Source: a candidate division WWE3 bacterium
GTDB taxonomy: Bacteria; Patescibacteriota; WWE3; UBA101185; UBA10185
Assembly (NCBI GenBank): GCA_014729135.1
Contig: WJKK01000001.1
Location: forward strand, 389,462 to 453,461
Length of the DNA: 64,000 nt
Direction: 5' to 3'
Shown: positions 1,609 to 25,460 of the stretch, piece after piece
Layout of the letters: every line of letters starts with the position of its first letter
Position numbering within the stretch: position 1 is the stretch's first letter
Program-made: the position numbers and the translations under genes
Notes under the pieces: model-generated
Databases searched by the model: none
Seen by the model: only the letters and a program-made list of their open reading frames with translations
Told to the model about the DNA's origin: nothing

Positions 1609-1888
1609 TGACGTTTTACTAAAACCCATTGTTACGGAAAAGACCATAGCGCTTTACAATCGCGAAGGTGTTTATACCTTTAAGGTTGCTCTAGATGCTA
1701 CTAAGAATCAGATTAGACAGGCTTTAAAGGACACGTTTGATGTGGAAGCCGGTGATGTTAGGACCTTGGTTATGCCAGGTAAGCGTAGAAGAATTGCAAG
1801 AACTGCTCGTTTTAAGACGACTCCTATGTTTAAGAAGGCAGTTTTTAAGTTGAAAAAAGGTAAGTTAGATTTTTATACGAGCGAGTAA
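1598..1888 (+). CDS. rplW: 50S ribosomal protein L23
   Basis: 96 aa; position and L23-like sequence (VLLKPIVTEK). Confidence 0.9.
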   Translation: MRINDVLLKPIVTEKTIALYNREGVYTFKVALDATKNQIRQALKDTFDVEAGDVRTLVMPGKRRRIARTARFKTTPMFKKAVFKLKKGKLDFYTSE

Positions 1889-1912
1889 ATTAAGGGCAAT
1901 TAAAGAAAGCAT

Positions 1913-2764
1913 ATGATTAAGGAACACAGACCAACAACACCGGGACAAAGAGGCCGAAGATCCTTGAAAAAGGATGTAGATAAGGTGCGTCCTAATAAAA
2001 AGCTTACAAAGTCAGCTAAAGGTCATGTTGGTAGAAATAAAGGTAAAATTTCCAGCAGGCATCGCCAGCGAGGTGCAAAAAAGCATTACCGTGTTATAGA
2101 TTTTAAGCGCGATAAAAAAGGTGTTCCTGCTAAGGTGGCTACAATAGAGCATGATCCTAATAGAGGGGCTAATATTGCTTTGCTTCATTATGTGGATGGT
2201 GAAAAGCGTTATATTTTGGCTCCGGTGGGATTGCAGCGAGGGATGGAAGTGGTCTCTTCCCCCGAGGCGGAAACTAAAGTAGGAAACTGTCTTCCTTTGC
2301 GAAACATTCCTATTGGAACTGAAATTCATAATGTAGAGCTTCGTCCGGGACGTGGTGGGCAAATGGTACGAGGTGCCGGAACTTCCGCTATAATTACAGC
2401 CAAGGAAGGAAAGTACGCTCATGTTAAACTTCCCAGTACTGAGATTAAGCGTGTTTTACTGGATTGTGTTGCTACAGTTGGAAGCTTGAGTAACCCTGAA
2501 AAGCGCAATGTGAATCTTGGTAAAGCCGGTAGAAAGCGTCATCTAGGTAGAAGGCCACATGTTAGAGGAGTAGCACATGCAAGTCCTAGAGAGCACCCTC
2601 ATGGTGGTTCTTACAAAGACAACGGAGTGGGAATGTCCTCACCAAAGACTCCTTGGGGTAAGAAGACGCGCGGTAAGAAGACTCGAAAGAGAACACACAC
2701 TGATAAATATATAGTTAAAGAGCGCCGCAGAGGAAAGAAAAAGAGCGGTGGGAGCAATAGATAA
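1913..2764 (+). CDS. rplB: 50S ribosomal protein L2
   Basis: 283 aa; HPHGGSY... motif region and position; Lys/Arg-rich C-terminal tail. Confidence 0.95.
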
Positions 2765-2766
2765 AA

Positions 2767-3063
2767 ATGGCTAGATCACTTAAAAAAGGTCCTTTTGTGG
2801 ACGAAAAATTAATGAAAAAAGTTAAGAAGGCTAAAGCTGAAAATGACAGAAAGCCTATTAAAACCTGGTCCAGACGTTCTACGGTAATTCCGGAGATGCT
2901 TGGGCTTACTATTGCAATTCATAACGGTAGAAAACACATAGAAGTTTTAATAACGGAGCCCATGGTAGGTCATAAGTTAGGCGAGTTTGCTCCTACTAGA
3001 ACATTTAGAGGGCACTCTTCCAAGAAGTTAACAGAAAAGAAAAAGAAGAAAGGTATTGTTTAA
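2767..3063 (+). CDS. rpsS: 30S ribosomal protein S19
   Basis: 98 aa; [12 protein letters not shown]... S19 signature. Confidence 0.95.
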
Positions 3064-3066
3064 AAA

Positions 3067-3420
3067 ATGACACCTAAAGCACAAGTTTACGCAAAATATA
3101 AAGGAGCCAGAACGTCTGTAAAAAAGGCGCGTACTGTAGCTGACTTGATTCGAGGCAAGGATCTTAAAGATGCTAAGGTGACTTTGGCTTTTCATCAGTC
3201 AAAGGCAGCTAACTTGTTTTTGCAGGTTTTAAAATCAGCGGAAGCTAATGCAGTTAATAACAACAAGCTAAATCCTGCTACGCTTTATGTAGCGGATGCT
3301 CAAGTTTCTCCCGGCCCCACAATGAAGCGGGCTCGAATTGTTGCTTACTCACGGGTTAATCCCATTTTAAAGCGAACGGCTCATTTGGTAGTTGGTTTAT
3401 CCGAGAAGGAGAATAAGTAA
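3067..3420 (+). CDS. rplV: 50S ribosomal protein L22
   Basis: 117 aa; operon position; L22-like. Confidence 0.9.
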   Translation: MTPKAQVYAKYKGARTSVKKARTVADLIRGKDLKDAKVTLAFHQSKAANLFLQVLKSAEANAVNNNKLNPATLYVADAQVSPGPTMKRARIVAYSRVNPILKRTAHLVVGLSEKENK

Positions 3421-4056
3421 ATGGGTCAGAAAATACATCCATATGGTTTTAGAGTAGGAGTTTCCAAGCCTTGGCGATCTAATTGGTTTGCTGATAGAGG
3501 TCAGTATGCTGATTTGGCTTTAGAGGATCATAAGATTCGGGAGTTTTTGGAAGAGCGTTTGTTTAATGCGGGACTTAAAGAGATTATGATTAAGCGTTCT
3601 GTAAATGAGTTGGACATTATTTTAAAGGTGTCTCGTCCCGGTTTGGTTATTGGTAGAGGAGGTTCAGGGATTCAGCAGTTGGAGCAAGATCTTCGCGACT
3701 TTACAAAGTCTAAGATCAAGATGACTGTTGAGGAAATTAAGACTCCTGAGTTGGAGGCAAAGCTGGTTGCAGAGTATATTAGTCGTCAAATTAAGCGCCG
3801 TATGCCTTATAGAAGGACTATTAAGTCGGCAATTCGTTCCGGAATGGATAAGGGTGCTAAGGGAATTAAGATTCGTGTTTCAGGTGTTTTAAGCGGCGGT
3901 AATACAATTGCTCGTTCTGAGGTTTATTCCGAGGGATCAATTCCCACGCAAACTTTACGTGCCAATATTGACTATGCTCAGCATCACTGCAAGCTTTTAT
4001 TTGGAACTATTGGAATTAAGGTGTGGATTTATAAAGGTGAGGAGGATATTTCGTAA
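3421..4056 (+). CDS. rpsC: 30S ribosomal protein S3
   Basis: 211 aa; [13 protein letters not shown]... KH domain S3 signature. Confidence 0.95.
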
Positions 4057-4478
4057 TGTTGTTACCAAAGAGAGTAAAATACCGCTCAACCATGCGTGGA
4101 AAAAACAGGGGAGTTGCTACAAGAGGTTTTACCGTAAACTTTGGTGATTTTGGTTTGAAGGCTTTGGAGCACGGATATGTTTCTTCTCGTCAGATAGAGG
4201 CAGCGCGAAAAGCTATTACGCATAGAACAAAGCGAACAGGTAAGATCTGGATTCGGATTTTTCCCGATAAGCCCATTCCTAAGAAGCCGAATGAAACTCG
4301 AATGGGAAAGGGAAAGTCTCCAACGGATCACTATGCTGCCGTAGTTAAGCCCGGGACAATACTGTTTGAGATCGCCGGAGTTTCTGATGAGCTTGCACGA
4401 TCTGCTATGAGAAGGGCTTCTGATAAGTTAGGTATTAAAACAAAAGTGGTAAGTTCTGATGTTTTTGGAGGGAAATAA
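4056..4478 (+). CDS. rplP: 50S ribosomal protein L16
   Basis: 140 aa; [10 protein letters not shown]...RGKNRG L16 signature. Confidence 0.95.
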
Positions 4479-4481
4479 ATT

Positions 4482-4682
4482 ATGATAGCTGCGGATTTAC
4501 GAAAAAAGACAATAGAAGATTTGGAAAAGCTTGCTAAAAAGACAAAACAGGAAGTTGCTGAAATGCGCTTAGAAGTTATTAAAGAAAAAGAGTCAAATGT
4601 GACAAAAATTAGGGATTTGAGGAAGGATTATGCTAGAATCCTCACTGTTCTTAATGAGAAAAGGAGAAATAACAATGCCTAA
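4482..4682 (+). CDS. rpmC: 50S ribosomal protein L29
   Basis: 66 aa; position between L16 and S17; L29-like helical protein. Confidence 0.85.
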   Translation: MIAADLRKKTIEDLEKLAKKTKQEVAEMRLEVIKEKESNVTKIRDLRKDYARILTVLNEKRRNNNA

Positions 4683-4911
4683 AAAGATATTAAAGGGAAC
4701 AGTAGTTTCCGACAAAATGGAAAAAACAGTAGTAATTGCTGTAGATGTGGCTAAAAAGCATCCGTTGTATACAAAAGCTATTACCAAAACAAAAAGATAT
4801 AAGGCGCATGATGAGTTGGGCGTTAAAGAGGGTACTGAAGTGATAATAGAGGAAAGCCGTCCTTACAGTAAAGAGGTTACTTGGATAGTTAAGGAAGTTG
4901 TTGAGGAGTAA
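4675..4911 (+). CDS. rpsQ: 30S ribosomal protein S17
   Basis: ORF 4630-4911 trimmed to the ATG at 4675 (AAGGAG RBS upstream); [15 protein letters not shown]... S17 signature. Confidence 0.9.
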
Positions 4912-4913
4912 GC

Positions 4914-5282
4914 ATGATCCCTGTAGGAACTACGCTAAGATTAGCCGACAACTCCGGAGCCCGCCGCTTAAAGGTTATTGGTATCCCCGGAGCAGGTCGA
5001 AGAAGGTTTGCAGGTTTGGGCGACACTGTAGTTGCAGCCGTTAAAGGAGCCTCTTCCACAGGCGTCGTAAAAGATCACTCTGTTGTTAAAGCTGTTTTAG
5101 TTAGAACCAAAAAAGAGACTCGAAGAAAAGACGGCAGCTACATTAGATTTGGCGACAATGCTGCCATAGTAGTTAATGCTGACGGAAACATGATAGGAAC
5201 TCGTGTATTTGGTCCCGTAGCCCGAGAATTAAGAGACCGCGGATTTATGAGAATTGTTTCATTAGCTAAGGAAGTTTGGTAA
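4914..5282 (+). CDS. rplN: 50S ribosomal protein L14
   Basis: 122 aa; [18 protein letters not shown]14 signature. Confidence 0.95.
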
Positions 5283-5286
5283 TTCT

Positions 5287-5607
5287 ATGAAATTAAGAAC
5301 AGGTGACAAAGTAAAAGTTATAACCGGTAAGGATAAGGGGAAGATCAGCACTGTTTTAAAGGTGCTTCCTTCTAAGAATAAGGTGATTGTTGAGGATGTG
5401 AATAAGGTTAAAAAGCATGTTAAACCGGGGCAGGTTTCTGAGGAGGGTGGAATTATTGAGATAGAAAAGCCTATTGATGCTTCAAATGTTATGTATTATG
5501 AGGAAAGTGAGAAGGCGGTTACTAGAATTGGGTTTAAGTTTGAAGATGGTAAAAAAGTGCGTATTTCTAAGAAGACGGGTAAAGTTTTAAAGTCTAAGGA
5601 AGATTAA
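5287..5607 (+). CDS. rplX: 50S ribosomal protein L24
   Basis: 106 aa; KLRTGDKVKVITGKDKGK KOW motif. Confidence 0.9.
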   Translation: MKLRTGDKVKVITGKDKGKISTVLKVLPSKNKVIVEDVNKVKKHVKPGQVSEEGGIIEIEKPIDASNVMYYEESEKAVTRIGFKFEDGKKVRISKKTGKVLKSKED

Positions 5608-6156
5608 ATGTCAGAAAGATTGCAAGTAAAATATAAAGAGGAGATTTTGCCGGAGCTTGTAAAGGAGCTCAAGTTGGAGAATTCTATGTCTGCTCCTTCT
5701 ATTAAGAAGGTTTCGGTTAATGCGGGAATTGGAGAGTTTAGGGAGAGTCATGATGCTGTTGAGGCCTTTAAGGAAGAGATGACGGCTTTGTTGGGACAAG
5801 CTCCTCAGGAGCGCCCCGCAAAAAAGGCTATTTCAGGTTTTAAACTGCAGAAGGGTGACATTGTTGGAATTTCTGCTACACTACGTGGGGACAAAATGTG
5901 GGCTTTTATTGATAAGCTTGTTAATATCGTCTTGCCTCGTGTTAGAGATTTTAGAGGTTTGGAAACTACTGCATTTGATGAGCATGGGAACTATTCGATT
6001 GGTTTGGATGATCATACGATTTTTCCTGAGGTTAATCCTAATAAGGTTAAGGAGAGCCGTCCTATGCAGATAAATATTGTTACAAGTGCTGAAACTAAGG
6101 AGGCAAGTGAGCTGCTACTGAGGAAGTTAGGTTTTCCTTTAAAGAAAGAAAAATAA
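5608..6156 (+). CDS. rplE: 50S ribosomal protein L5
   Basis: 182 aa; L5-like; operon position. Confidence 0.95.
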
Positions 6157-15609: not shown

Positions 15610-15939
15610 TTAGACTTGGTTTTGTTCCCGGGGTTTTCCCTTACTATCCACTAAACTCGTATAGCGACCTCCCAAAAGTTCCTCAATTTCTTTCATTTGG
15701 TAGCGAATCTTTTGCAACCTTTCAAGGATCATCTTTTTTGTTTTAATGTTTGGAGCTTTAATATGCCCGCAATACGTATCCGAAATTTTTTCCAATACCT
15801 TCAAAGGCGGAACTACTTTACCCGTTTCATAGGCAGAAACTGTTTTCCCTGAAATTCCTATCTTTTGTCCGAATCTACTTTGGGACAGTCCTTGTTCTTT
15901 TCTTAAATTTTTAATCTGTTTTCCGGGATTTGAATTCAT
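15610..15939 (-). CDS. XRE-family helix-turn-helix transcriptional regulator
   Basis: 109 aa; LRKEQGLSQSRFGQKIGISGKTVSAYETGK HTH_3 pattern; divergent from radC. Confidence 0.75.
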   Translation of the reverse strand: MNSNPGKQIKNLRKEQGLSQSRFGQKIGISGKTVSAYETGKVVPPLKVLEKISDTYCGHIKAPNIKTKKMILERLQKIRYQMKEIEELLGGRYTSLVDSKGKPREQNQV

Positions 15940-16009: not shown

Positions 16010-16711
16010 ATGAAGAAAACTTTACATGAATTACCCATAACAGAGCTTCCAAGAGAGCGTATGCTTAAATTTGGAGGCCGAGCTTTATCCGATACTGAAC
16101 TTCTTGCGCTTCTTTTGCGTTCAGGAGGTCCCAATTTAAACGCTTTACAGTTAGCGCAATATTTATTATCAGAGTTTGGAAATTTACGCCAACTTTTAGC
16201 AGCAGATGTGGAGCAGTTAAAAAAAGTGAAGTACTTGGGGGAGGCTAAAGTTTGTTCCTTAAAAGCCGTTAAAGAATTAGCTAAAAGATGCATTGCTATA
16301 GGAGAAATACGTAAGCCTCACGTAGAAACTCCCGAGGAAGTATATGATTTACTTTTACCTCTGACTTTAGGTGAGGAAAAAGAGCACCTCTATTTACTTA
16401 GTCTAGATCTAAACGGAAATTTAATAAAGTTAAGTCTAATTTCCATGGGGAGTTTAACGCAAACCTTAGCAGACACTCGTGAAATCCTTCGAACGGCGTT
16501 ATTAAAAGGGGCAGTTTCAGTAATTCTTGCACACAACCATCCCAATAATAACCCCAAACCAAGCGACCCCGACAAACAACTCACAAAAGAAATCGCTCTA
16601 GCCTGCCCAAAAGTAGGCCTAAACTTTTTGGATCACATAATTGTCACAAACTCGGGATACTTCAGTTTCAAGCTTGCCGGATTATTAAATTACAAATCAG
16701 AAAGGAGGTGA
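16010..16711 (+). CDS. radC: RadC-family JAB/MPN domain protein (UPF0758)
   Basis: 233 aa; N-terminal HhH region, C-terminal HNHPNNNP...SDPD JAMM motif. Confidence 0.8.
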   Translation: MKKTLHELPITELPRERMLKFGGRALSDTELLALLLRSGGPNLNALQLAQYLLSEFGNLRQLLAADVEQLKKVKYLGEAKVCSLKAVKELAKRCIAIGEIRKPHVETPEEVYDLLLPLTLGEEKEHLYLLSLDLNGNLIKLSLISMGSLTQTLADTREILRTALLKGAVSVILAHNHPNNNPKPSDPDKQLTKEIALACPKVGLNFLDHIIVTNSGYFSFKLAGLLNYKSERR

Positions 16712-16715
16712 AAAT

Positions 16716-17321
16716 ATGAAACTTAAACAGTTTAAGCCAAAGAAAGCTTTATATGTCTATGGTTCTTTAGTGCTGCTCTTGGTGCTGACTTTAGGAGTTA
16801 CGTTTGCGACTTTTACGGACACGTTAGACTTTGGAGGAGCTATGTTCTCTGTGGCCAACTCTGAAGTCAAGTTGCTGGATGCAATCGGGGGAGGGATTGA
16901 TCCTAGCAACCTTGTAGATTCAAAGCCCGGTCCTCAGTTTGATAACGTAGCGGGAGGTTGGTTTGCGGATTATCCTGTGGAGATCTACAGTAATGCAACT
17001 ACGGATGTGAATTTGTGGTCTTGGGCTAATTATGAGGATGTAGCTGTAAATGACCCTGCAGAGCTTCGTCAGTACATTTATGTTGAGATTCTGGATTGGA
17101 CGGATGCCAATGGAGACGGTATGCCCGAGCAATCTGAATTTGGTAGCAGCTATGGACGAAAGACGATCTTAAAGTGGAATACGGAAGGCATTGATCTGGG
17201 AACTTTGTCGCCCGGAGAAGTGCGTTCTTTAGCGCTAAGGTTTAGTGTAGATAGCTTGTCGAATGCAAAGCAAGGTGAAAGTTTGCTTTACGATTTCGAG
17301 TTTGAAGCACTAGGGCTCTAG
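16716..17321 (+). CDS. SipW-cognate secreted protein, TasA/camelysin-like
   Basis: 201 aa; N-terminal TM then ...ATFTDTLDF... matching the SipW-cognate signal (F-T-D) pattern; immediately upstream of sipW. Confidence 0.6.
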   Translation: MKLKQFKPKKALYVYGSLVLLLVLTLGVTFATFTDTLDFGGAMFSVANSEVKLLDAIGGGIDPSNLVDSKPGPQFDNVAGGWFADYPVEIYSNATTDVNLWSWANYEDVAVNDPAELRQYIYVEILDWTDANGDGMPEQSEFGSSYGRKTILKWNTEGIDLGTLSPGEVRSLALRFSVDSLSNAKQGESLLYDFEFEALGL

Positions 17322-17370: not shown

Positions 17371-17856
17371 GTGTGCGCTGATTTGAAAAATATGCAATAC
17401 AAAAAAGTCCCTCAATACATCTTAGCTTTCCTAGCAGGCATAGGAGCATTTGCACTTACACTTCGTTTTGAGCTCCTTCTTGTGCAAACTTCCTCCATGG
17501 AGCCAACAATCCCAAAAGCAACAATAATCCTGGTGGATAAGACGGCCCCTTACAAAAAAGGCGACGTAATAACCTTTAAAATAAAAGATTCCTTAGTTAC
17601 TCATCGGCTCATTCAGACCAAAACCACTGAAAACAACCGCTTTCTTACAACTAAAGGTGACGCCAATAACTATATCGACAAAATTCCTCTAACAAGCAAA
17701 GACGTTTTAGGTCGTGTAATTTTCACCTTTCCCTACTTGGGCTATGCTGTTATGTGTTTAATACATCCCTTGTTTTTGCTTTTGTTCTTTTATATTCCGG
17801 TAGGTCATTACTTTGGAAAAATGTCCAAAAAATTTGTAAACCAAATTCGCAATTGA
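17371..17856 (+). CDS. sipW: signal peptidase I, archaeal/ER type (SipW-like, S26B)
   Basis: 161 aa; N- and C-terminal TM; catalytic TSSMEPT box and downstream His-containing box. Confidence 0.75.
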   Translation: MCADLKNMQYKKVPQYILAFLAGIGAFALTLRFELLLVQTSSMEPTIPKATIILVDKTAPYKKGDVITFKIKDSLVTHRLIQTKTTENNRFLTTKGDANNYIDKIPLTSKDVLGRVIFTFPYLGYAVMCLIHPLFLLLFFYIPVGHYFGKMSKKFVNQIRN

Positions 17857-17868
17857 TATGCTTAAATC

Positions 17869-20430
17869 ATGCTGAAACTGCCTAAGCGCCCGCTGGAGCC
17901 TCTTTTTTGGTTTGCTTATAAAGCTCCAAAAAGAATCTTTAAAATTATCAAACGTCTAATTATTCTTGTAAATCACTCGATTTCCTTTACGTTAAATATC
18001 AAGCTTCTTTTTGTGCCTTTGTTTGGCGACTACACAATTCCCGGTAGAATCATTGGATTTATTTTTAGAATTGCTCAAATTTTTTATGGGCTTTTAGCAC
18101 TTTTGGTTTTGGCATTGCTTTTGATTTTGGCGCCTTTATTTTGGTACATTTCGCCTTTTGTTTTAGCTTATTACATAAAAGGTTATATTTTACTTTTGGC
18201 TTTCGGGATTTATGTGGTACGCTTGTTTGCTATTAGAGACACTCCCCGAAAAAGAGTTACCGATGATAAGACAGAAGATCCTTTAAGTGCAGTTCGCCCT
18301 AATGCCCTCTCCCTTTTAAAACAAGCGCATCGAACTCACTCCTTGGAGAAATTTGCGCATGATGCGGATATTCACTACCTTTTGCAGAAGCTGGAACTGG
18401 ATAAAAAAGATTTCTATGCTCAGGCAACAGATCTTCCGGATTTTGAGGTGTGGAAGGTTGCAAAAAGTGCTTATGAATTGGCTCAGGAGGAAGGTACTCG
18501 TTATGTGGAAAAAGAGCATGTGTTTTATGCCTTGCTGAAGCTTATTCCGGATGTAGAGAATTTTTTGATGTCGTTTGGCGTTGCTCTTGCGGATGTTAAA
18601 GAGGCAATCTTTTGGATTGTGGATGAGCGTGATCGTTTAGCGGGTATTTTCATTTGGCAGGAAGACTATCACATAGACAAGCTCGGAGGTTTTGGTCGCG
18701 GGATGACCGGGCGAGTGACTCCTTCCCTGGATGCAGTTTCCACAGATTTTACGGAGCTTGCTAAAAAAGGCCTCATTGAAGGAATTATTGCTCATCATGC
18801 GGAAATTAAAGAAATTGCTAATCTCCTTTCAGGATCCAAAAAAGTTAACGTCATGATTGTAGGTCCTCCCGGGAGCGGTAAAACCTCCATTGTAAAAGGC
18901 ATAGCTGAGCAAATCATTAAAGGTACCGAATATGAAAAAATTGCTAACAAGCGCATTGTAAGTGTGGAGTCGGGAGCCTTGGTAGCAGGAGCAAAAAGTT
19001 CAGGGGATGTAGCTGCTAAGTTCAAACTCGTCATGAAAGATGCTTTAGAATCGGGCGATATAATCCTGTTTTTTGATGAAATTCACAATTTGGTTTCAGG
19101 CGTTGGGGGAGATGCCACAGAAGTCTCCAGCGTTTACTCCATTTTAGAGCCCTATCTTTCCACCGGGCAAATCCAGGTAATTGCAGCTACAAACCGGAAA
19201 ACTTATCGAAAATACATTGAGCCTAACGGAGCCTTTGCTCGCCTGTTTCATGTAGTTGATATTGAACCTTCAACTAACGAAGAAACAAAAGATATTCTGA
19301 AGTATTTAAGCTTTGATATTGAAGAGGAGGAGGGCGTTTTAATAACTTTGCCCGCCATAAAAAAGATTATTCGCTTGTCCAGCAAGTTAATTCAGGAGCG
19401 CGTTTTCCCGGATAAAGCCGTTGATGTTTTAAATCGCTGTGTTCGTGTGGTTTCACGGGAAAGCAAGGTAGTTACAGCGGAGAAGGCTGCCGAAGTTATT
19501 TCCGAAATGACGCACGTTCCGGTTACAGCGGTTGATGAAGATGAGTCGGAGAAGCTTTTGGAGCTTGAGGATAGAATGAAGGAGCGTGTTATTGGCCAGG
19601 ATCAAGCTGTTGCTGAAGTTTCTAAAGCGCTAAAGCGCGCTCGTGTTGGAATCCGCGATGAAAGTAAGCCCATTGCCTCCTTTTTGTTTGTTGGAACTAC
19701 AGGTGTTGGAAAGACCGAAACTGCTAAGACCTTGTCTCGGCTTTATTTCGGGGAGGAAAGCAAGATGATTCGTTTGGATATGAGTGAGTATCAGCAACCC
19801 GACAGTGTTAAAAAGTTGATTGGTAATTCTGATGGTAGTACTTCCGGCATATTAACGGAGGTGGTGCGCTCTAATCCTTTTTCGGTTTTGCTTCTGGATG
19901 AAATTGAAAAGGCTGCTCCTCAAGTGTTGCTGACGTTTTTGCAGGTTTTAGATGACGGTCGTTTAACGGATTCGGCAGGAAATACCGTGGATTTTGCTAA
20001 CACGATTATTATTGCAACAAGTAACGTGGGGACGCGTGAGATTCAGGCGGTTGCAGCTCGTGATGGTAGCTTTTCCGAAATGGAGGAGGCTGCTTTGAAG
20101 AAGGTTCGCGACCATTATGCTCCCGAGTTTTTAAATAGGTTTAGTGGCATTATTGTGTTTAATCCGTTGTCTAAGGAGGATGTGAAAAAGATTGCACGGA
20201 TTTTGCTTCGTAAGGTGGAGAAAGTGGCAGCAGAAAAGGATATTAAGGTTACTTTTACGGATGGTCTGTTGGAGGGCTTGGTGGAGCGTGGTTATAACAA
20301 GGAGTGGGGTGCGCGTCCTTTAGCGCGTGTTATTGAGGATAAGGTTGAAACGTATTTGGCGGATAAGCTTTTGTCTAAGGAGATTAAGCGTGGGGATGTG
20401 TTGGAACTCGGCCCTGAGGTTTTTGAGTAG
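17869..20430 (+). CDS. membrane-anchored Hsp100/Clp-family AAA+ ATPase (two AAA modules, no M-domain)
   Basis: 853 aa; residues ~25-125 form 3-4 hydrophobic helices; Clp_N-like repeats; Walker A GPPGSGKT and GTTGVGKT; D2 signature LLLDEIEKA, GARPLARVIE; no IG[FL] loop found. Confidence 0.8.
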   Translation: MLKLPKRPLEPLFWFAYKAPKRIFKIIKRLIILVNHSISFTLNIKLLFVPLFGDYTIPGRIIGFIFRIAQIFYGLLALLVLALLLILAPLFWYISPFVLAYYIKGYILLLAFGIYVVRLFAIRDTPRKRVTDDKTEDPLSAVRPNALSLLKQAHRTHSLEKFAHDADIHYLLQKLELDKKDFYAQATDLPDFEVWKVAKSAYELAQEEGTRYVEKEHVFYALLKLIPDVENFLMSFGVALADVKEAIFWIVDERDRLAGIFIWQEDYHIDKLGGFGRGMTGRVTPSLDAVSTDFTELAKKGLIEGIIAHHAEIKEIANLLSGSKKVNVMIVGPPGSGKTSIVKGIAEQIIKGTEYEKIANKRIVSVESGALVAGAKSSGDVAAKFKLVMKDALESGDIILFFDEIHNLVSGVGGDATEVSSVYSILEPYLSTGQIQVIAATNRKTYRKYIEPNGAFARLFHVVDIEPSTNEETKDILKYLSFDIEEEEGVLITLPAIKKIIRLSSKLIQERVFPDKAVDVLNRCVRVVSRESKVVTAEKAAEVISEMTHVPVTAVDEDESEKLLELEDRMKERVIGQDQAVAEVSKALKRARVGIRDESKPIASFLFVGTTGVGKTETAKTLSRLYFGEESKMIRLDMSEYQQPDSVKKLIGNSDGSTSGILTEVVRSNPFSVLLLDEIEKAAPQVLLTFLQVLDDGRLTDSAGNTVDFANTIIIATSNVGTREIQAVAARDGSFSEMEEAALKKVRDHYAPEFLNRFSGIIVFNPLSKEDVKKIARILLRKVEKVAAEKDIKVTFTDGLLEGLVERGYNKEWGARPLARVIEDKVETYLADKLLSKEIKRGDVLELGPEVFE

Positions 20431-20470
20431 CTTCAGTAGTTCATTTTTGGTTTTTTGCTAAGATAAATTC

Positions 20471-21163
20471 ATGCTTAGTTATATTCAAGATTTAATTCTC
20501 ACAAACCTTCTAAATACCAAGGATCCTGCGCGTTACTCAGAGATTCAAGTAGATACTGTAGATAACGATCTTTTTAATTATCATCTTCAGCAGTTAGTTA
20601 AAAGGAATTATGTTTTAAAGGAGGATAAATTATATAGCCTATCTAATAAAGGAAAAGAGTATGTTCACAAGCTTGATGTTAAAGGTCACCTACATGACTT
20701 ATTTAAAGTTTCTGTTTTAGCTTATGTTACTAATTCCGCGGGAGAGTTACTTTTGCAGAAGCGCTTGCGTCACCCATATTTTGGAGAAATAGGTGTTGTA
20801 GCGGGGAAAATGCTCCTAGGAGAGTCTGCTGAAGACGCCGCAAAGAGAAAGCTCTTAGAGGAGACAGGTTTGACTTGTAATTTTAGACTGGTGGGTGTTA
20901 TTCGCAAGACTAGAAAGGATACTGAGGATAAAATCATTGAGGACACTCTTTTTCATGTCTGTTATGGTGATGACTTTTCAGGGGAGTTAGTGGAAGAAAA
21001 TGATTACGGTTTAAATTATTGGGCTTCCTTTGACAAAGCTTTAGATTCTTTTAAGAGAAATGCTACTTTTGGCACTTATTCGGAAGAGGTTTTGGAGAGA
21101 ATTCGGGACAGGCGTTTGGATACTTTTTACTTTCATGAAAGCCTTGAACTCTTAGATTTCTAG
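20471..21163 (+). CDS. Nudix hydrolase with N-terminal winged-helix-like domain
   Basis: 230 aa; Nudix box GKMLLGESAEDAAKRKLLEETGL. Confidence 0.7.
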   Translation: MLSYIQDLILTNLLNTKDPARYSEIQVDTVDNDLFNYHLQQLVKRNYVLKEDKLYSLSNKGKEYVHKLDVKGHLHDLFKVSVLAYVTNSAGELLLQKRLRHPYFGEIGVVAGKMLLGESAEDAAKRKLLEETGLTCNFRLVGVIRKTRKDTEDKIIEDTLFHVCYGDDFSGELVEENDYGLNYWASFDKALDSFKRNATFGTYSEEVLERIRDRRLDTFYFHESLELLDF

Positions 21164-21225
21164 CTTTACCTAGTTTCTCCTCGGTAGACATTTTTGATTC
21201 CTCTCTTAAACTATAGGTAGTTTGT

Positions 21226-21459
21226 GTGGAGATATCTGTAAAGGAGAGAAGGATGGCTATTAAGGGGTTTAAAACGGATAAGCAGACGGTGTTGATTCAA
21301 GGGAATGAGGGCTTTGTTCGTTGGGAGAGACTTCCGGGAAGGCTCCCCGAGGAAGATGGTAACTTCGGCTTCTACGACCATGGCTTCTTAGAAGCGGAGT
21401 CTCTTGAGGAGGCTCTAAGGAAAGGGCGTATCAAAAAAGCTGACGTTAAAGTTTTATAG
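21226..21459 (+). CDS. hypothetical small protein (77 aa)
   Basis: ORF with GGAGAG RBS-like sequence upstream; no recognisable family. Confidence 0.35.
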   Translation: MEISVKERRMAIKGFKTDKQTVLIQGNEGFVRWERLPGRLPEEDGNFGFYDHGFLEAESLEEALRKGRIKKADVKVL

Positions 21460-21468
21460 TTTTCTGTG

Positions 21469-21510
21469 AAAAGGGATTCCTTTCTGTTCGTTGGGGAGGA
21501 ATCCTTTTCT
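21469..21510. terminator. bidirectional intrinsic terminator between the 77-aa ORF and greA
   Basis: AAAAGGGATTCC...GGAATCCTTTT inverted repeat (~11 bp stem) flanked by T-runs on both strands. Confidence 0.5.
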
Positions 21511-21979
21511 AGTTCAAATTGGAGGCTTTTCGGATCTCTAGAATTTTTACTATCTCTTTTGAGTTCAAATTAATCTCTTCTCCTGCTTCTTTACCCAACA
21601 GGGCTTTTGCCATAGGAGACTTATAAGAGATGATGTCTTCATTTAAATTTACATCATCTTCTCCCAGAATAGTAAACTCCTCTTTGTCTTTTCCTATGAG
21701 CAAAGTTACACAGGTACCGAATTTTATCGTTTTTGGATCTTTCTCCAGTGTTTCTTCTGTTACAACTTGAGCATTTTGCAATTTAGCTTTTATATCCCGC
21801 AGACGCGCTTTCATCCTAAAAATATTTTCTTCTGCCGCCTCAAAAGCCGAACTTTCATGCCAACCCTCATCTGCATGAATTTCCCCCTTTTTTCTAATCT
21901 CGCTTTTTAGCTTTTCTTCCAGGTCTTTTTTAGCCTGTTTAAGCTTGTTATATCCTTTTTTTGTCACTAGTTCTTTCAT
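21509..21979 (-). CDS. greA: transcription elongation factor GreA
   Basis: 156 aa; N-terminal coiled coil plus C-terminal FKBP-like domain; GreA-like sequence. Confidence 0.85.
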   Translation of the reverse strand: MKELVTKKGYNKLKQAKKDLEEKLKSEIRKKGEIHADEGWHESSAFEAAEENIFRMKARLRDIKAKLQNAQVVTEETLEKDPKTIKFGTCVTLLIGKDKEEFTILGEDDVNLNEDIISYKSPMAKALLGKEAGEEINLNSKEIVKILEIRKASNLN

Positions 21980-21982
21980 TTT

Positions 21983-22609
21983 TTAGAGGGAAACCCTAGC
22001 CAAAATAGGGAATTGATTTTGAGGATCATTACTTTGACCTGAAATCACAAATTCTTTAACCATAAACGTGTTTTTCAGTATCTCATTATGTTCTTTTGCA
22101 ATCTCAAGAGCTTCTCTGATATTTTTCGGATCTATTTTTACAATAGAAATATGCGCATGGTACTCATAAGGATTACCATTTGTTTTTATTCTATGCTGCT
22201 CCTCTTTCGGGTACTGTTTCCAATTATCCAAATATTTCCGGGGAATCTTTACCTTGTGAATTTTGTTAGCTTTCTCCAGAAACTTTTCATTTAAATCTTT
22301 AAAAGTTTTCTGAGCTTTTTCATCCATCTCTAAAAAGATGTATTTATTGTTTGAGCTTTTTGTGTATTTTGTTAAAGTCACTTCAAAAGGATCTGTATTT
22401 TGCGCTAGTTTTGAGATCTCTTTCACAAATTCTTTCGTTTTTGAACCGGGAAGGAGCTTTCCGCCAACTGCAATATGAGCTTTGAAATTGTTTTCGTCCA
22501 GATATTCATTTGGAAATTTTTTGCTAAGTTTTTTGTAGAGCTGAAAAAGGTATTGATTCACCTTCTCCGGAAGGGATGTGTATATTGTATGGATTTTCTC
22601 ATCGTTCAT
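21983..22609 (-). CDS. putative 2H phosphoesterase superfamily protein (LigT-like)
   Basis: 208 aa; two H-x-[ST/A]-x motifs (AHIAV, AHISIV) ~110 aa apart. Confidence 0.4.
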   Translation of the reverse strand: MNDEKIHTIYTSLPEKVNQYLFQLYKKLSKKFPNEYLDENNFKAHIAVGGKLLPGSKTKEFVKEISKLAQNTDPFEVTLTKYTKSSNNKYIFLEMDEKAQKTFKDLNEKFLEKANKIHKVKIPRKYLDNWKQYPKEEQHRIKTNGNPYEYHAHISIVKIDPKNIREALEIAKEHNEILKNTFMVKEFVISGQSNDPQNQFPILARVSL

Positions 22610-23061: not shown

Positions 23062-24078
23062 ATGAGGGATGAAATAAATTCTGAACAAAAAGAGCGCTTA
23101 GAAAAGCTAAAAAAGCAGCTTTTTATTGCCGAAAAAACCGGAAAATACAACAAACTTAAATCCGAACTGGAAAATCCCGAACTTTGGGAAAATTGGGAAG
23201 AAGGGCAAAAAGTTTCAGAGGATCTTGCAGATTTAGAACGAGATCTTGAAGATTTTGCCTTATTGGAGCTTTTGTTGGAAGAAGGGCAAGAAGAAAAATT
23301 TGAAAAACTTGCCTCTCAAATAGAAGAAAAACTTTTTCTTTCAGGTGATCACGACAAATCCGCTGCTTACCTGTCAATTCATTCCGGTCAGGGTGGTACA
23401 GAGGCCATGGATTGGGCAGAAATGCTCTTACGAATGTATCTCATGTATGCAGAGCGAAAAAACTGGAAAGTGGATCTTATTGATAAGCGTTCAGGGGAGG
23501 AGGCGGGAATTAAAAGCGCAACAATTGAGATTCAAGGAAAATATGCTTACGGTTTTTTAAAGCACGAGTCAGGCACACATCGGCTGGTGCGTCAATCCCC
23601 TTTTAATGCCGATAATTTACGGCAGACCTCTTTTGCTTTGGTGGAAGTTTTGCCGGTTATTGATGATGAGTTAGAAGTTGAAATTAAGGATGAGGACATT
23701 GAGTTTGAGGCGTTTCGCGCAGGAGGTCATGGTGGCCAGAACGTGAATAAGGTTTCTACTGCGGTTCGTATTAAGCACTTGCCAACGGGTATTGTGGTGG
23801 AAAATCAAACGGAGCGAAGTCAGCTGCAGAATCGTCAGCGAGCAATGAGTATTTTGCGATCTAAGCTTTTTGCTTTGGAGGAGGCTAAGCGCTTGGAGGA
23901 GGAGGCTAAGTTAAAAGGTGAGTATAAGAAGCCGGGGTGGGGGAATCAGATTCGGAATTATGTTTTGCATCCCTATAAGTTGGTTAAGGATTTGCGTACA
24001 GGAGTTGAGAGTACGAATCCGGAGCTTGTTTTGGATGGTCATCTGGATGAGTTTGTTGATGCCGAAGTTCGCTTGTAG
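23062..24078 (+). CDS. prfB: peptide chain release factor 2 (single uninterrupted frame)
   Basis: 338 aa; SPF tripeptide (RQSPFNADN) and GGQ motif; no internal UGA frameshift site. Confidence 0.9.
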
Positions 24079-24131: not shown

Positions 24132-25460
24132 ATGGCAAAGAAATCCTCTCAAAATCCACCAGAAAATTTAGAAAAAAAAGCAAAAGATTCTCCTGAAAAA
24201 GCTCCAGGCAAAAACGCACAGGAAGTCAACAAAGATTTAGAAGTGAAATCCTCCTTTAAGTCTTTTGGAAACGATGCGACCAAAAAAGGTGGTAAGAATG
24301 CTAAAAAAGCTTCCTTTACAAAAGCTCAGTCGCTCGGTGCAAAAAAGAAACTTCCTTTAATTTACATAATCCTAGGGGTGCTAATAGCAGGAGCTCTTTC
24401 TTTAGGACTAGTTTATGCCTTTGGTTTTGGAGGCTTTTCCGGTATTGTTAGCCCCCTCTCTGACGGCACTCCCATAACAACAGAACCTCAAGAAGAAATG
24501 GTTGCAAATCCTTTAACAGGTGAAAAATACTCCAAATCAGAAGCCCCTTGGATAAATGACCGCCCTCTAGCCGTAATGGTCAACAACTATATTGACGCAC
24601 GCCCTCAATCCGGTTTAGTTGATGCCGACCTTGTTTATGAAATCGTCGCCGAAGGAGGCATAACAAGATTTATTCCATTTTTTCTCTCCAAAACGCCTGA
24701 AAAAATTGGCCCTGTTAGAAGCACTCGTGATTACTACTTAGTTCTAGTAAAAGAGTTGGGCGACGCCATGATCATGCACATTGGATGGTCTCCTCAGGCT
24801 TTAGAAGCAATAGAAACCTGGCCTGTTCGCAGTTTAGGTAGAGGTGGTGGTAGCTTTTGGCGAGAAAATCCCCGAAACGTTGCTACAGAACATACTGCCT
24901 ATGTAAATGGTAAAGATCTTCGTGAGCTTGGCGATGAATTAGGTTGGGAAGGAACACGTGAATTTCCGGCTTGGCAGTTTAAAGATGACAGTCCTACTCC
25001 ATTAGCGGAAGGGCCCGACTCCTGTGAAACTGTTGCGGCTTTATGCGATCCCTTAACAATAGACTTTTGGTATGAGGGCGATTATTCCGCAATCTTCAAA
25101 TACAATCCCGATAACAACTCATATTTAAGATTTACAGGATACGATGCTAATGGCGATCCGATTCCACATGAAGATCAAGATACAGGTGAACAAATTGAAG
25201 TTAAAAACGTTATTGTTCAGTTTGCTGATGAAAGTGCTATAGAAGGTGATACGAAAAATCGCCTTTCTTATGCTTTGGTGGGCAGCGGAACCGGTTTGGT
25301 CTTTTTGGATGGTACTGTGGAGGAAGTTACTTGGTCTAAAGCCGAAAGAGATGCTCGCACAATGTTTTACGATCTCAATGGTGAAGAGATGCAGTTTAAT
25401 CGCGGTCAGTTTTGGATTAGTATTGTTCCTACAAGGAATGAATCACAAGTTAAGTATTAA
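24132..25460 (+). CDS. DUF3048 (YerB-like) membrane-anchored protein with Lys-rich N-terminal tail
   Basis: 442 aa; K-rich disordered 70 aa, one TM, then PLAVMVNNYIDARPQSGLVDADLVYEIVAEGGITRF, typical of DUF3048. Confidence 0.6.
   Translation: MAKKSSQNPPENLEKKAKDSPEKAPGKNAQEVNKDLEVKSSFKSFGNDATKKGGKNAKKASFTKAQSLGAKKKLPLIYIILGVLIAGALSLGLVYAFGFGGFSGIVSPLSDGTPITTEPQEEMVANPLTGEKYSKSEAPWINDRPLAVMVNNYIDARPQSGLVDADLVYEIVAEGGITRFIPFFLSKTPEKIGPVRSTRDYYLVLVKELGDAMIMHIGWSPQALEAIETWPVRSLGRGGGSFWRENPRNVATEHTAYVNGKDLRELGDELGWEGTREFPAWQFKDDSPTPLAEGPDSCETVAALCDPLTIDFWYEGDYSAIFKYNPDNNSYLRFTGYDANGDPIPHEDQDTGEQIEVKNVIVQFADESAIEGDTKNRLSYALVGSGTGLVFLDGTVEEVTWSKAERDARTMFYDLNGEEMQFNRGQFWISIVPTRNESQVKY

Follow-up and report, generated by a model that had tools for sequence, protein, structure and literature searches.

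What does a Clp-type ATPase do once it has lost the parts that normally connect it to its partners and its substrate? Hsp100/Clp proteins are the textbook polypeptide-threading motors, and the question is raised by one gene of a candidate division WWE3 bacterium, carried on a 64-kb stretch of DNA (the window hereafter; about 7% of its 864-kb contig). The 853-residue product joins an N-terminal membrane module to two AAA+ rings, D1 and D2, and our favoured reading, in which we have moderate confidence, is that of a membrane-bound remodeller, derived from ClpC and driven by ATP, that works without canonical polypeptide threading, its two-ring ATPase being permanently joined to a dedicated membrane module. 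The alignments show that the family as a whole lacks the M-domain, the tripeptide for docking onto ClpP and the tyrosines of both pore loops, and that the ATPase chemistry is intact at least in D2. This large conserved branch, probably representing a core gene of an entire radiation of ultra-small symbiotic bacteria, keeps the ATPase engine, but all three canonical links, to ClpP (docking), to Hsp70 (the M-domain) and to substrate (the aromatic pore paddles), have been dropped, and an obligatory partner in the membrane has been added. Such a combination would come as a surprise to Hsp100 specialists, and the family that carries it is real and conserved.

The open reading frame (ORF) begins at its first ATG, 12 nt past an upstream stop codon, and its product is identical to a database protein (P0001) annotated as 'AAA domain-containing protein [candidate division WWE3 bacterium]'. 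From the N-terminus, its parts are a membrane module, a Clp_N-like domain, a Gly-rich linker, D1, a short connector, D2 and the D2-small domain (Table 1). Pfam recognizes AAA (residues 328-452, E 6.5e-26), AAA_lid_9 (470-566, E 9e-10), AAA_2 (600-759, E 6e-53) and ClpB_D2-small (767-845, E 1.7e-21) in one chain, which is the class I Clp/Hsp100 layout. Sequence searches of the PDB return ClpB and ClpC at E ~1e-125, and Foldseek returns the same two at E ~1e-51, with ClpC as the best full-length structural match. These modules and matches identify the protein as a two-ring Clp/Hsp100. Its scores against the NCBIfam models nevertheless lie far below the cut-offs: 524.8 bits versus 1232.1 for ClpB (TIGR03346), 483.4 versus 993.15 for ClpA (TIGR02639), 436.5 versus 884.95 for ClpV, and about 435 versus 1900 for ClpG/ClpK. 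Membership of ClpA was rejected on its score and the missing IGL loop, membership of the ClpB disaggregases on its score and on an M-domain that falls opposite a gap, and membership of ClpV/TssH on its score and on neighbours that are ribosomal proteins, radC, a signal peptidase and prfB. FtsH was rejected as well: the protein has two AAA modules, Peptidase_M41 is not among the best 25 of its 36 Pfam matches, and the identified domains fill the chain to residue 845.

Most likely, the protein belongs to a ClpC-derived branch of the Clp/Hsp100 proteins, since the N-domain profile, the top structural match and the TPxLD motif that precedes D1 all point to ClpC. The N-domain profile matches ClpC/ClpC1 at E 5e-5 to 1e-4, through the second repeat, compared with 0.13 for ClpA and 0.84 for ClpB. 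All of the top 50 Foldseek matches of this domain in the PDB are Clp N-domains, at weak E values of 0.04-0.9. The domain is divergent: hhalign against the N-domain of E. coli ClpB gives a probability of only 30%, and PF02861 (Clp_N), precomputed on eight homologues, is not among the best 25 of the 36 Pfam matches of the 853-residue protein. The TPxLD end of the linker resembles the 'TPTLD' of ClpC, which reads 'NNTPTLDSLARDLT' in the Staphylococcus aureus protein.

An initial annotation, made from the DNA letters and their reading frames, had claimed that the protein lacks both a ClpB-type M-domain and the IG[FL] loop with which Clp ATPases dock onto ClpP. Both claims were borne out when the protein and its relatives were aligned with a reference set of E. 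coli ClpA, ClpB, ClpP and ClpX. The ClpB coiled coil lies wholly opposite a gap; E. coli ClpA aligns as a single continuous stretch (residues 287-840), and ClpB and ClpC align as two. Without an M-domain of this type, there is no known coupling to DnaK/Hsp70. Where ClpA has RKSIGLIHQ, the protein reads AVAARDGSFSEM (residues 727-738), and where S. aureus ClpC has RFAGFGG, it has a gap. Alignment against the Clp references found no IGF or IGL at the homologous D2 position, and a hydrophobic-Gly-hydrophobic tripeptide occurs there in none of the 54 members of the WWE3-type alignment, the consensus being xxxG[ST][FL]xEM. The missing tripeptide and M-domain thus support, as far as sequence can, the view that the protein is neither a ClpP partner nor a classic disaggregase. 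An I62-G63-F64 tripeptide is present, but inside the N-terminal membrane-proximal motif and in a region that AlphaFold2 (AF2) predicts to be helical. It was rejected as a ClpP-docking element on both counts and shares no homology with the docking loop of D2. Searches of the window (tblastn with E. coli proteins) found no clpP, clpX, clpS or second Clp gene.

The N-terminal transmembrane (TM) anchor that had also been proposed is real and conserved, with hydropathy, charge pattern and predicted helices in agreement. Kyte-Doolittle(19) values peak at 2.7 near residue 82 and at 1.8 near residue 112. Residues 71-100 contain no charged residue in any of the 54 sequences, and patches of K/R lie on both flanks of the hydrophobic region. 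The AF2 model (predicted local distance difference test score (pLDDT) 83, predicted template modelling score (pTM) 0.72) places helices at residues 6-38, 40-45, 57-103 and 106-121, at pLDDT 80-90. An N-in/C-in topology is predicted for the hairpin and agrees with the positive-inside rule, which is satisfied on either side. A true start codon downstream of the hydrophobic region, which would have removed the anchor altogether, is ruled out by the more than 120 homologues from independent assemblies that cover 97-100% of the query, and by residues that are invariant within positions 1-130 (W14, P50, G59, R67, W92 and P126). Features conserved in this way across the family are neither chance nor sequencing error. 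What did not survive is the notion of a simple anchor, as the N-terminus is a conserved module that forms a separate gene in other lineages of the candidate phyla radiation (CPR). Its first helix, residues 4-34, keeps a periodic pattern of charged and hydrophobic residues across the 54 sequences. The signature motif that follows contains the best-conserved residues of the first 290 (N35, N43, R45, F48, P50, D54, G59, R60, G63 and R67 are invariant or nearly so), and P89, W92 and P96 are conserved in the hairpin turn. The module has no match in Pfam, in NCBIfam or, by sequence, in the PDB; by fold, the PDB matches the Clp_N part only.

These observations bear directly on the most conservative account of the gene, in which it encodes an ordinary cytosolic ClpC/ClpA orthologue whose TM region is an artefact, or whose docking onto ClpP is of a non-canonical kind. 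Relatives are indeed annotated as 'ATP-dependent Clp protease ATP-binding subunit ClpC/ClpA', and the I-G-F at residues 62-64 could be taken for a docking element. However, the artefact is contradicted by the protein-level conservation of the N-terminal region in all those independent assemblies, the tripeptide sits beside TM1 at the opposite end of the protein from the ClpP-binding D2 face, the scores fall short of every Clp equivalog cut-off, and the window holds no clpP. We therefore give this account almost no credence. The ClpC/ClpA label is a mis-annotation, and anyone reconstructing the metabolism and proteostasis of CPR bacteria would be led by it to assume Clp proteolysis wrongly.

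The pore loops are where the protein departs furthest from a threading motor. A 'ClpA-like loop', LIGAPPGYVGFDQGG, had been noted as shortened to LIGNSDGSTSG (residues 650-660). The shortening is correct and reflects a four-residue deletion that is found family-wide, but it had been overlooked that this loop is the D2 pore loop, from which the deletion takes out the Tyr-Val pair that grips substrate. The consensus among the 54 members is G-x-P-D-G-[SK]-[ST]-K-G, with no aromatic residue. In D1, the AG[TA]KYRG[DE]FE of ClpA and ClpB has become AGAKSSGDVA, so that KYRG is replaced by KSSG, and position 377 is occupied by T (27 sequences), S (20), N (4), G (2) or H (1). The loss of tyrosine extends to a wider sample of 41 full-length, module-bearing Clp ATPases drawn from different 50%-identity clusters. 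Tyrosine in the D1 column (ClpB Y251) is found in 0 of 54 WWE3-type members and 0 of 41 wider representatives, and in the D2 column (Y653) in 0 of 54 and 1 of 41, with P0129 the sole exception. The loops that remain are conserved: G374, G379, G652 and G660 are near-invariant and K659 occurs in 38 of the 54. The replacement loops have the look of rebuilding and not of decay. Processive unfolding by Clp/Hsp100 proteins has been described as critically dependent on their conserved aromatic pore loops (PMC5425593). With both tyrosines lost, canonical polypeptide threading is unlikely, and the suggestion in the initial annotation of a dedicated unfoldase or translocase is weakened and does not hold as it was stated.

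Could the protein still pull on polypeptides? A membrane-anchored unfoldase or dislocase, comparable to a protease-less FtsH or a bacterial Msp1, would draw membrane or secretory proteins from the membrane side through its central channel into the cytoplasm. The ATPase motifs are intact in both rings, the anchor would by its architecture turn the D1 entry face toward the membrane, and the pore loops are conserved and not random. A signal peptidase gene and a gene for a secreted protein lie upstream, a signal peptidase gene lies near a distant relative (locus L074), and SecA is encoded upstream in L056. All of this would suit a dislocase. Nonetheless, we think such an activity unlikely, given that essentially every member is without the two aromatic residues, that aromatic loops are considered critical if Clp/Hsp100 proteins are to unfold substrates processively (PMC5425593), that the shortened D2 loop has disappeared altogether from several relatives, and that D1 is catalytically dead in many relatives. 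The resemblance to FtsH, Msp1/ATAD1 and Bcs1 lies in an N-terminal TM anchor that keeps a ring ATPase at the membrane. Those proteins are single-ring members of other AAA clades with functional aromatic pore loops, and FtsH has a protease domain besides; none of these features is present in the 853-residue protein.

The protein can be set against the established two-ring families. It shares with the ClpC of Firmicutes and Actinobacteria the two AAA+ rings with D2-small, the best N-domain profile match and TPxLD before D1, and differs in having no MecA-binding half M-domain, no [VA]GF loop and no pore tyrosines, and in its added membrane module. Like ClpA, it has a short D1-D2 connector without a coiled coil, but it lacks the IGL loop, KYR and GYVG and is anchored in the membrane. 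Its D2 is most similar to that of ClpB/Hsp104 (45% identity to D2 of E. coli ClpB), and neither has a ClpP loop; unlike ClpB/Hsp104, it has no M-domain and no equivalents of Y251 and Y653, and it is membrane-anchored.

The ATPase motifs have fared differently from the couplings. Both rings retain intact Walker A and Walker B motifs across the 54-member alignment, and the D2 motifs are intact in every relative checked, including the wider CPR relatives. The D2 Arg finger (N756-R757) and sensor-2 (G814-A-R-P) are likewise intact, and D1 keeps one of the two ClpB arginines, with a single R458 (ARLF) in place of the ERRF pair. Among the wider relatives, several lineages have a degenerate Walker B motif in D1, and the D2 pore loop forms a graded series that runs from full length without the first Tyr (GAPPGQAGYQEGG) through GSPPGAGTIEVGQ and the GSPDG----STKG of WWE3 to deletion of the loop. 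This progressive degeneration of D1 catalysis and of the D2 loop across the superfamily, together with a membrane module that supplies the strongest conserved motif of the N-terminal region and is the only constant partner, might be read as the mark of a pseudo-unfoldase. Such a protein would have a largely non-mechanical, regulatory or scaffolding role and would not work on a threaded client; ATP binding or hydrolysis would instead gate how the membrane module assembles or acts, for instance as a channel built from the hairpins. We judge this to be very unlikely, because the WWE3 branch keeps the catalytic motifs in both rings and D2 is intact everywhere, which argues for real ATP turnover, and because the hairpin channel is a supposition only.

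A scan with a profile of the N-terminal region, covering one genome per GTDB species, yielded 55 loci, all of them in Patescibacteria and mostly in WWE3, including the complete RAAC2_WWE3_1 chromosome. An exhaustive hidden Markov model (HMM) search of 1.84 billion representatives returned 789 matches at E <= 1e-3, 120 at <= 1e-10 and 39 at <= 1e-30. The most likely interpretation is that the family is a Patescibacteria-specific, lineage-wide branch of Clp/Hsp100 and a core gene. The HMM search also recovered about 25 stand-alone proteins of 108-128 residues that match no Pfam family and contain nothing beyond the amphipathic helix, the hydrophobic hairpin and, between them, the PL[FY]GDY..GR..G..R motif. 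Genomic positions were looked up for eight of their genes. In six (L059, L063, L064, L066, L069 and L072), the module gene lies directly upstream of a gene for a Clp-like double AAA+ protein, with a gap of 2-17 nt or an overlap; these ATPases have 817-868 residues, except that the L072 gene is cut by the contig end at a length of at least 660 residues. The module gene in L070 is followed by a gene that begins with a TM segment and is cut by the contig end, and that of P0225 (L065) lies on a 1.3-kb contig where the downstream gene is cut at 74 residues and is uninformative. The further module gene of P0244 precedes an alanyl-tRNA synthetase-like gene and is a clear exception. The split version occurs in candidate division Kazan, Parcubacteria and Minisyncoccia, where the small protein is annotated as "hypothetical" and the large one as "Clp ATP-binding subunit" or "AAA family ATPase". 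Split-type ATPases have a TM hairpin of their own at the N-terminus, a Clp_N-like domain and an NRAWT[AS]RPTPxLD linker, and they lack the M-domain, the IGF loop and GYVG. Four of them (L059, L063, L064 and L066) combine a degenerate D1 (for example GKN/…PDIH and GSGRT/…PHIH) with an intact D2, and D1 is intact in L072. Fusion in WWE3 and adjacent genes elsewhere argue strongly for a single working unit made up of membrane module and ATPase.

The split arrangement leaves room for a bolder idea, which we regard as rather improbable, namely that this is a two-part Patescibacteria machine, made as one protein in WWE3 and as two in Kazan, Parcubacteria and Minisyncoccia, in which a rebuilt ClpC-derived ring with polar and basic loops and a hairpin protein (PL[FY]GDY..GR..G..R) together move or remodel something other than polypeptide at or across the membrane. 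Examples would be DNA in uptake or repair, or, in a Torsin-like manner, the bilayer or envelope. If true, this would add a new class of mechanism to the Hsp100 proteins and give CPR bacteria a trait that defines their lineage.

Returning to the ClpC-derived remodeller that we favour, the protein would form a hexamer at the cytoplasmic face of the membrane, with the D1 face toward the inner membrane face and six hairpins holding the ring. D2 would be the main motor, and the machine would act independently of ClpP and of coupling to DnaK, without processive threading by aromatic paddles. Movements of the ring, driven by ATP and acting in concert with the N-domain and membrane module, would then remodel, extract or assemble something at the membrane. 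The most economical guess is that the clients are membrane or secreted proteins, because the gene has a signal peptidase gene and a secreted-protein gene as neighbours. Such an arrangement would be functionally nearer to Torsin and its TM cofactors than to ClpB or ClpA. Torsins are Clp/Hsp100-related proteins that associate with the membrane through an N-terminal hydrophobic region, lack aromatic pore loops and work with a TM partner, and the missing pore loops are the ground on which processive unfolding by Torsins has been doubted (PMC5425593). Since aromatic pore loops are absent in both, Torsin with LAP1/LULL1, in the eukaryotic endoplasmic reticulum and nuclear envelope, may offer the closest analogy for a possible mode of action. 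The analogy has clear bounds. Torsin is luminal and has a single AAA+ module without an Arg finger of its own, whereas the 853-residue protein is predicted to be cytoplasmic and has two rings with their own Arg fingers; the Torsin partner has a degenerate AAA+ fold, whereas the partner module of the WWE3 family is a small hairpin protein; and there is no sign of direct descent. Membership of the Torsins was rejected on the two AAA+ modules and the conserved D2 finger (N756-R757) and D1 R458, leaving a resemblance that is functional only.

Several points weigh against the remodeller. The two rings with their own Arg fingers set the protein apart from Torsin, the conserved replacement loops may still grip a substrate, possibly a polypeptide, by some other chemistry, and the neighbourhoods outside WWE3 are heterogeneous, so that the context yields no consistent client. 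If the remodeller is nonetheless correct, the family may be a bacterial counterpart to the unsolved Torsin problem, that is, the role of a pore-loop-less Clp-like ATPase at a membrane, and the WWE3-type system may be the easier one to study, with one or two genes and no eukaryotic cofactors. Literature searches combining WWE3 or CPR with ClpP, ClpC and Hsp100, in which subscription journals were outside the coverage, found no paper on the family. The ClpP genes in the TM7x papers are those of the host, and Clp is not mentioned in the paper on the RAAC2 WWE3 genome. The loss of ClpX that Coleman et al. infer for the CPR stem is in keeping with a Clp system that has been rewired.

Table 1. Parts of the membrane-fused Clp-type gene and neighbouring genes, with positions in the window
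Feature	Position	Strand	Residues and description
Whole gene	17869-20430	+	853 residues; membrane-fused Clp/Hsp100-type double AAA+ ATPase; candidate division WWE3
Amphipathic K/R-rich helix	17878-17970	+	4-34; W14, W15, P20, K21, R22, K28, R29; predicted at cytoplasmic membrane interface
Signature motif	17971-18069	+	35-67; NNxxSFTLNxRLLFxPLFGDYTxxGRxIGFxxR
Hydrophobic hairpin	18070-18219	+	TM1 68-88, turn P89-x-x-W92-x-x-x-P96, TM2 97-117
Basic juxtamembrane segment and polar linker	18220-18279	+	118-137; T-P126-x-K-R
Divergent Clp_N-type N-domain	18280-18639	+	138-257; closest to ClpC N-domains
Family-specific Gly-rich linker	18640-18732	+	258-288; W263-Q-E-D-Y...G-G-x-G-x-G-M-T-G-R-V-T-P-x-L-D
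D1 AAA+ module	18733-19524	+	289-552; Walker A GPPGSGKT 332-339 (18862-18885); Walker B ILFFDE 399-404 (19063-19080)
D1 pore loop	18985-19020	+	373-384, AGAKSSGDVAAK; S377 in place of ClpB Y251 / ClpA KYR
D1-D2 connector	19525-19596	+	553-576; short, ClpA-like; no M-domain coiled coil
D2 AAA+ module	19597-20166	+	577-766; Walker A GTTGVGKT 609-616; Walker B VLLLDE 673-678
D2 pore loop	19816-19854	+	650-662, LIGNSDGSTSGIL; canonical GAPPGYVG[YF]xxGG minus Y-V-G-aromatic through a 4-residue deletion
Region homologous to ClpA IGL / ClpC [VA]GF docking loop	20047-20076	+	727-736; AVAARDGSFS, without hydrophobic-G-hydrophobic
ClpB_D2-small domain	20167-20403	+	767-845; Pfam match
radC	16010-16711	+	First gene of possible radC / secreted protein / sipW / clp unit; Pfam and NCBIfam
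Predicted secreted or membrane protein	16716-17321	+	201 residues; weak SipW-dependent-type signal peptide, TIGR04088 14.9 bits, below cut-off 19
Archaeal/SipW-type signal peptidase I	17371-17856	+	12 nt upstream of Clp gene; TIGR02228 79.6 bits versus 51.85; Pfam S24/S26
NUDIX hydrolase	20471-21163		clp-prfB insertion; N-terminal DUF7347/winged helix-turn-helix domain
77-residue ORF	21226-21459		clp-prfB insertion
greA	21509-21979	-	clp-prfB insertion
2'-5' RNA ligase-superfamily gene	21983-22609	-	clp-prfB insertion

The genomic setting in WWE3 is that of a housekeeping gene. The order rplQ, rplM, rpsI, radC, the gene for a 201-residue secreted protein, in some cases a SipW-type signal peptidase gene, clp and prfB is found in 40-48 of the 55 loci. 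By tblastn, the 201-residue protein, which has no Pfam family, is encoded upstream of the Clp gene in 48 of the 55 related genomes, and the signal peptidase is detected in 22 of the 55 loci. Short gaps between radC, the 201-residue gene, sipW and clp (4, 49 and 12 nt, respectively), with terminator-like hairpins on either side (15615-15632 and 20414-20436, from a scan that overall was not above chance), suggest a radC-to-clp transcription unit. Pfam and NCBIfam identify the product of the first of these genes as RadC, and a TasA-like secreted-protein label for ORF 16010-16711 was rejected. In PADLOC, the only matches were partial and of AAA_2 type, to the PDC-M37B and DolB models. An anti-phage defence ATPase was rejected, as these matches are generic and the gene is syntenic and core in WWE3. 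The conserved housekeeping neighbourhood and the generic nature of the defence matches thus argue for a core gene and against a mobile or defence element.

Outside WWE3, genes for AP endonuclease, PolX, PolA, RecO, RuvA and MGMT are neighbours in several lineages, SecA (upstream, L056) and Peptidase_S26 (L074) appear once each, and glycosyltransferases or dockerin proteins are encoded elsewhere; across all these neighbourhoods, the sole constant partner of the ATPase is the membrane module. The repair genes are one reason to consider a nucleic-acid motor, a membrane-tethered and D2-driven machine (HCLR clade, RuvB-like) that would act through its Lys/Ser/Thr pore loops on DNA at the membrane, in uptake, segregation or repair, in cells that scavenge nucleotides. 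In its favour are replacement loops that are small, polar and basic (K376 and K659) and DNA-metabolism genes beside family members in several independent arrangements: radC in the window, AP endonuclease genes that precede the family gene in L054 and L055 and follow it in L064, PolX downstream in L058, L059 and L069, PolA in L064 and RecO in L066, and RuvA, NUDIX and MGMT in L059 and L069. Yet DNA-metabolism neighbours are not universal, with none in L074, L075 and L076, which are independent contexts, and the gene categories were picked post hoc. In Firmicutes, clpC adjoins radA and disA, so that the repair neighbours may simply be inherited synteny. The protein also has no recognizable DNA-binding domain, and its Clp_N domain points to binding of a protein or adaptor. 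We thus consider a nucleic-acid motor a poor prospect.

Several smaller observations concern the window itself. The genes for the 201-residue protein and the SipW-type peptidase may form a cassette for a secreted fibre of TapA/TasA type, here in a member of the CPR. In most WWE3 genomes prfB directly follows clp, whereas here an insertion (20471-22609) lies between clp and prfB (23062-24078). No programmed frameshift was seen in the downstream prfB when it was checked. Downstream of prfB lies a gene for a DUF3048 protein with N- and C-terminal domains (24132-25460), which occupies the same position in several WWE3 genomes. The first 15.6 kb of the window resembles a ribosomal-protein super-operon that ends with rplQ, rplM and rpsI. 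Nearly all ORFs are on the + strand. With four exceptions, the 2-kb segments have positive GC skew, and its cumulative value climbs across the 64 kb, in which ARAGORN found no tRNA genes.

Others concern the relatives. L058 (8083-10731) and L059 (5288-7858) encode highly divergent TM-anchored Clp-like ATPases in which the D1 Walker B motif has become 'IPDVH' or 'FPDIH'; the D2 pore loop is deleted outright in L058, and a PolX (HHH_8/PHP) gene is next downstream in both. Two contigs of the same metagenome-assembled genome, AS27yjCOA_165 (L030 and L031), each carry a copy of the family, either as a paralogue pair or through strain heterogeneity in the bin. Another group of proteins (P0179, P0190, P0195, P0208, P0210 and others, 320-776 residues) matches only the Clp_N-repeat part of the search profile (positions ~195-258), four to six times each, and consists of multi-repeat Clp_N proteins without AAA modules. 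Finally, in L066, from candidate division Kazan, two LAGLIDADG homing-endonuclease ORFs (3053-3832 and 4767-5237) lie within positions 1722-6001, a stretch of about 4.3 kb that has no further called genes and precedes the gene pair for module and Clp ATPase. Intron-containing rRNA genes have been reported for CPR bacteria, and the layout of this stretch would be as expected for such genes.

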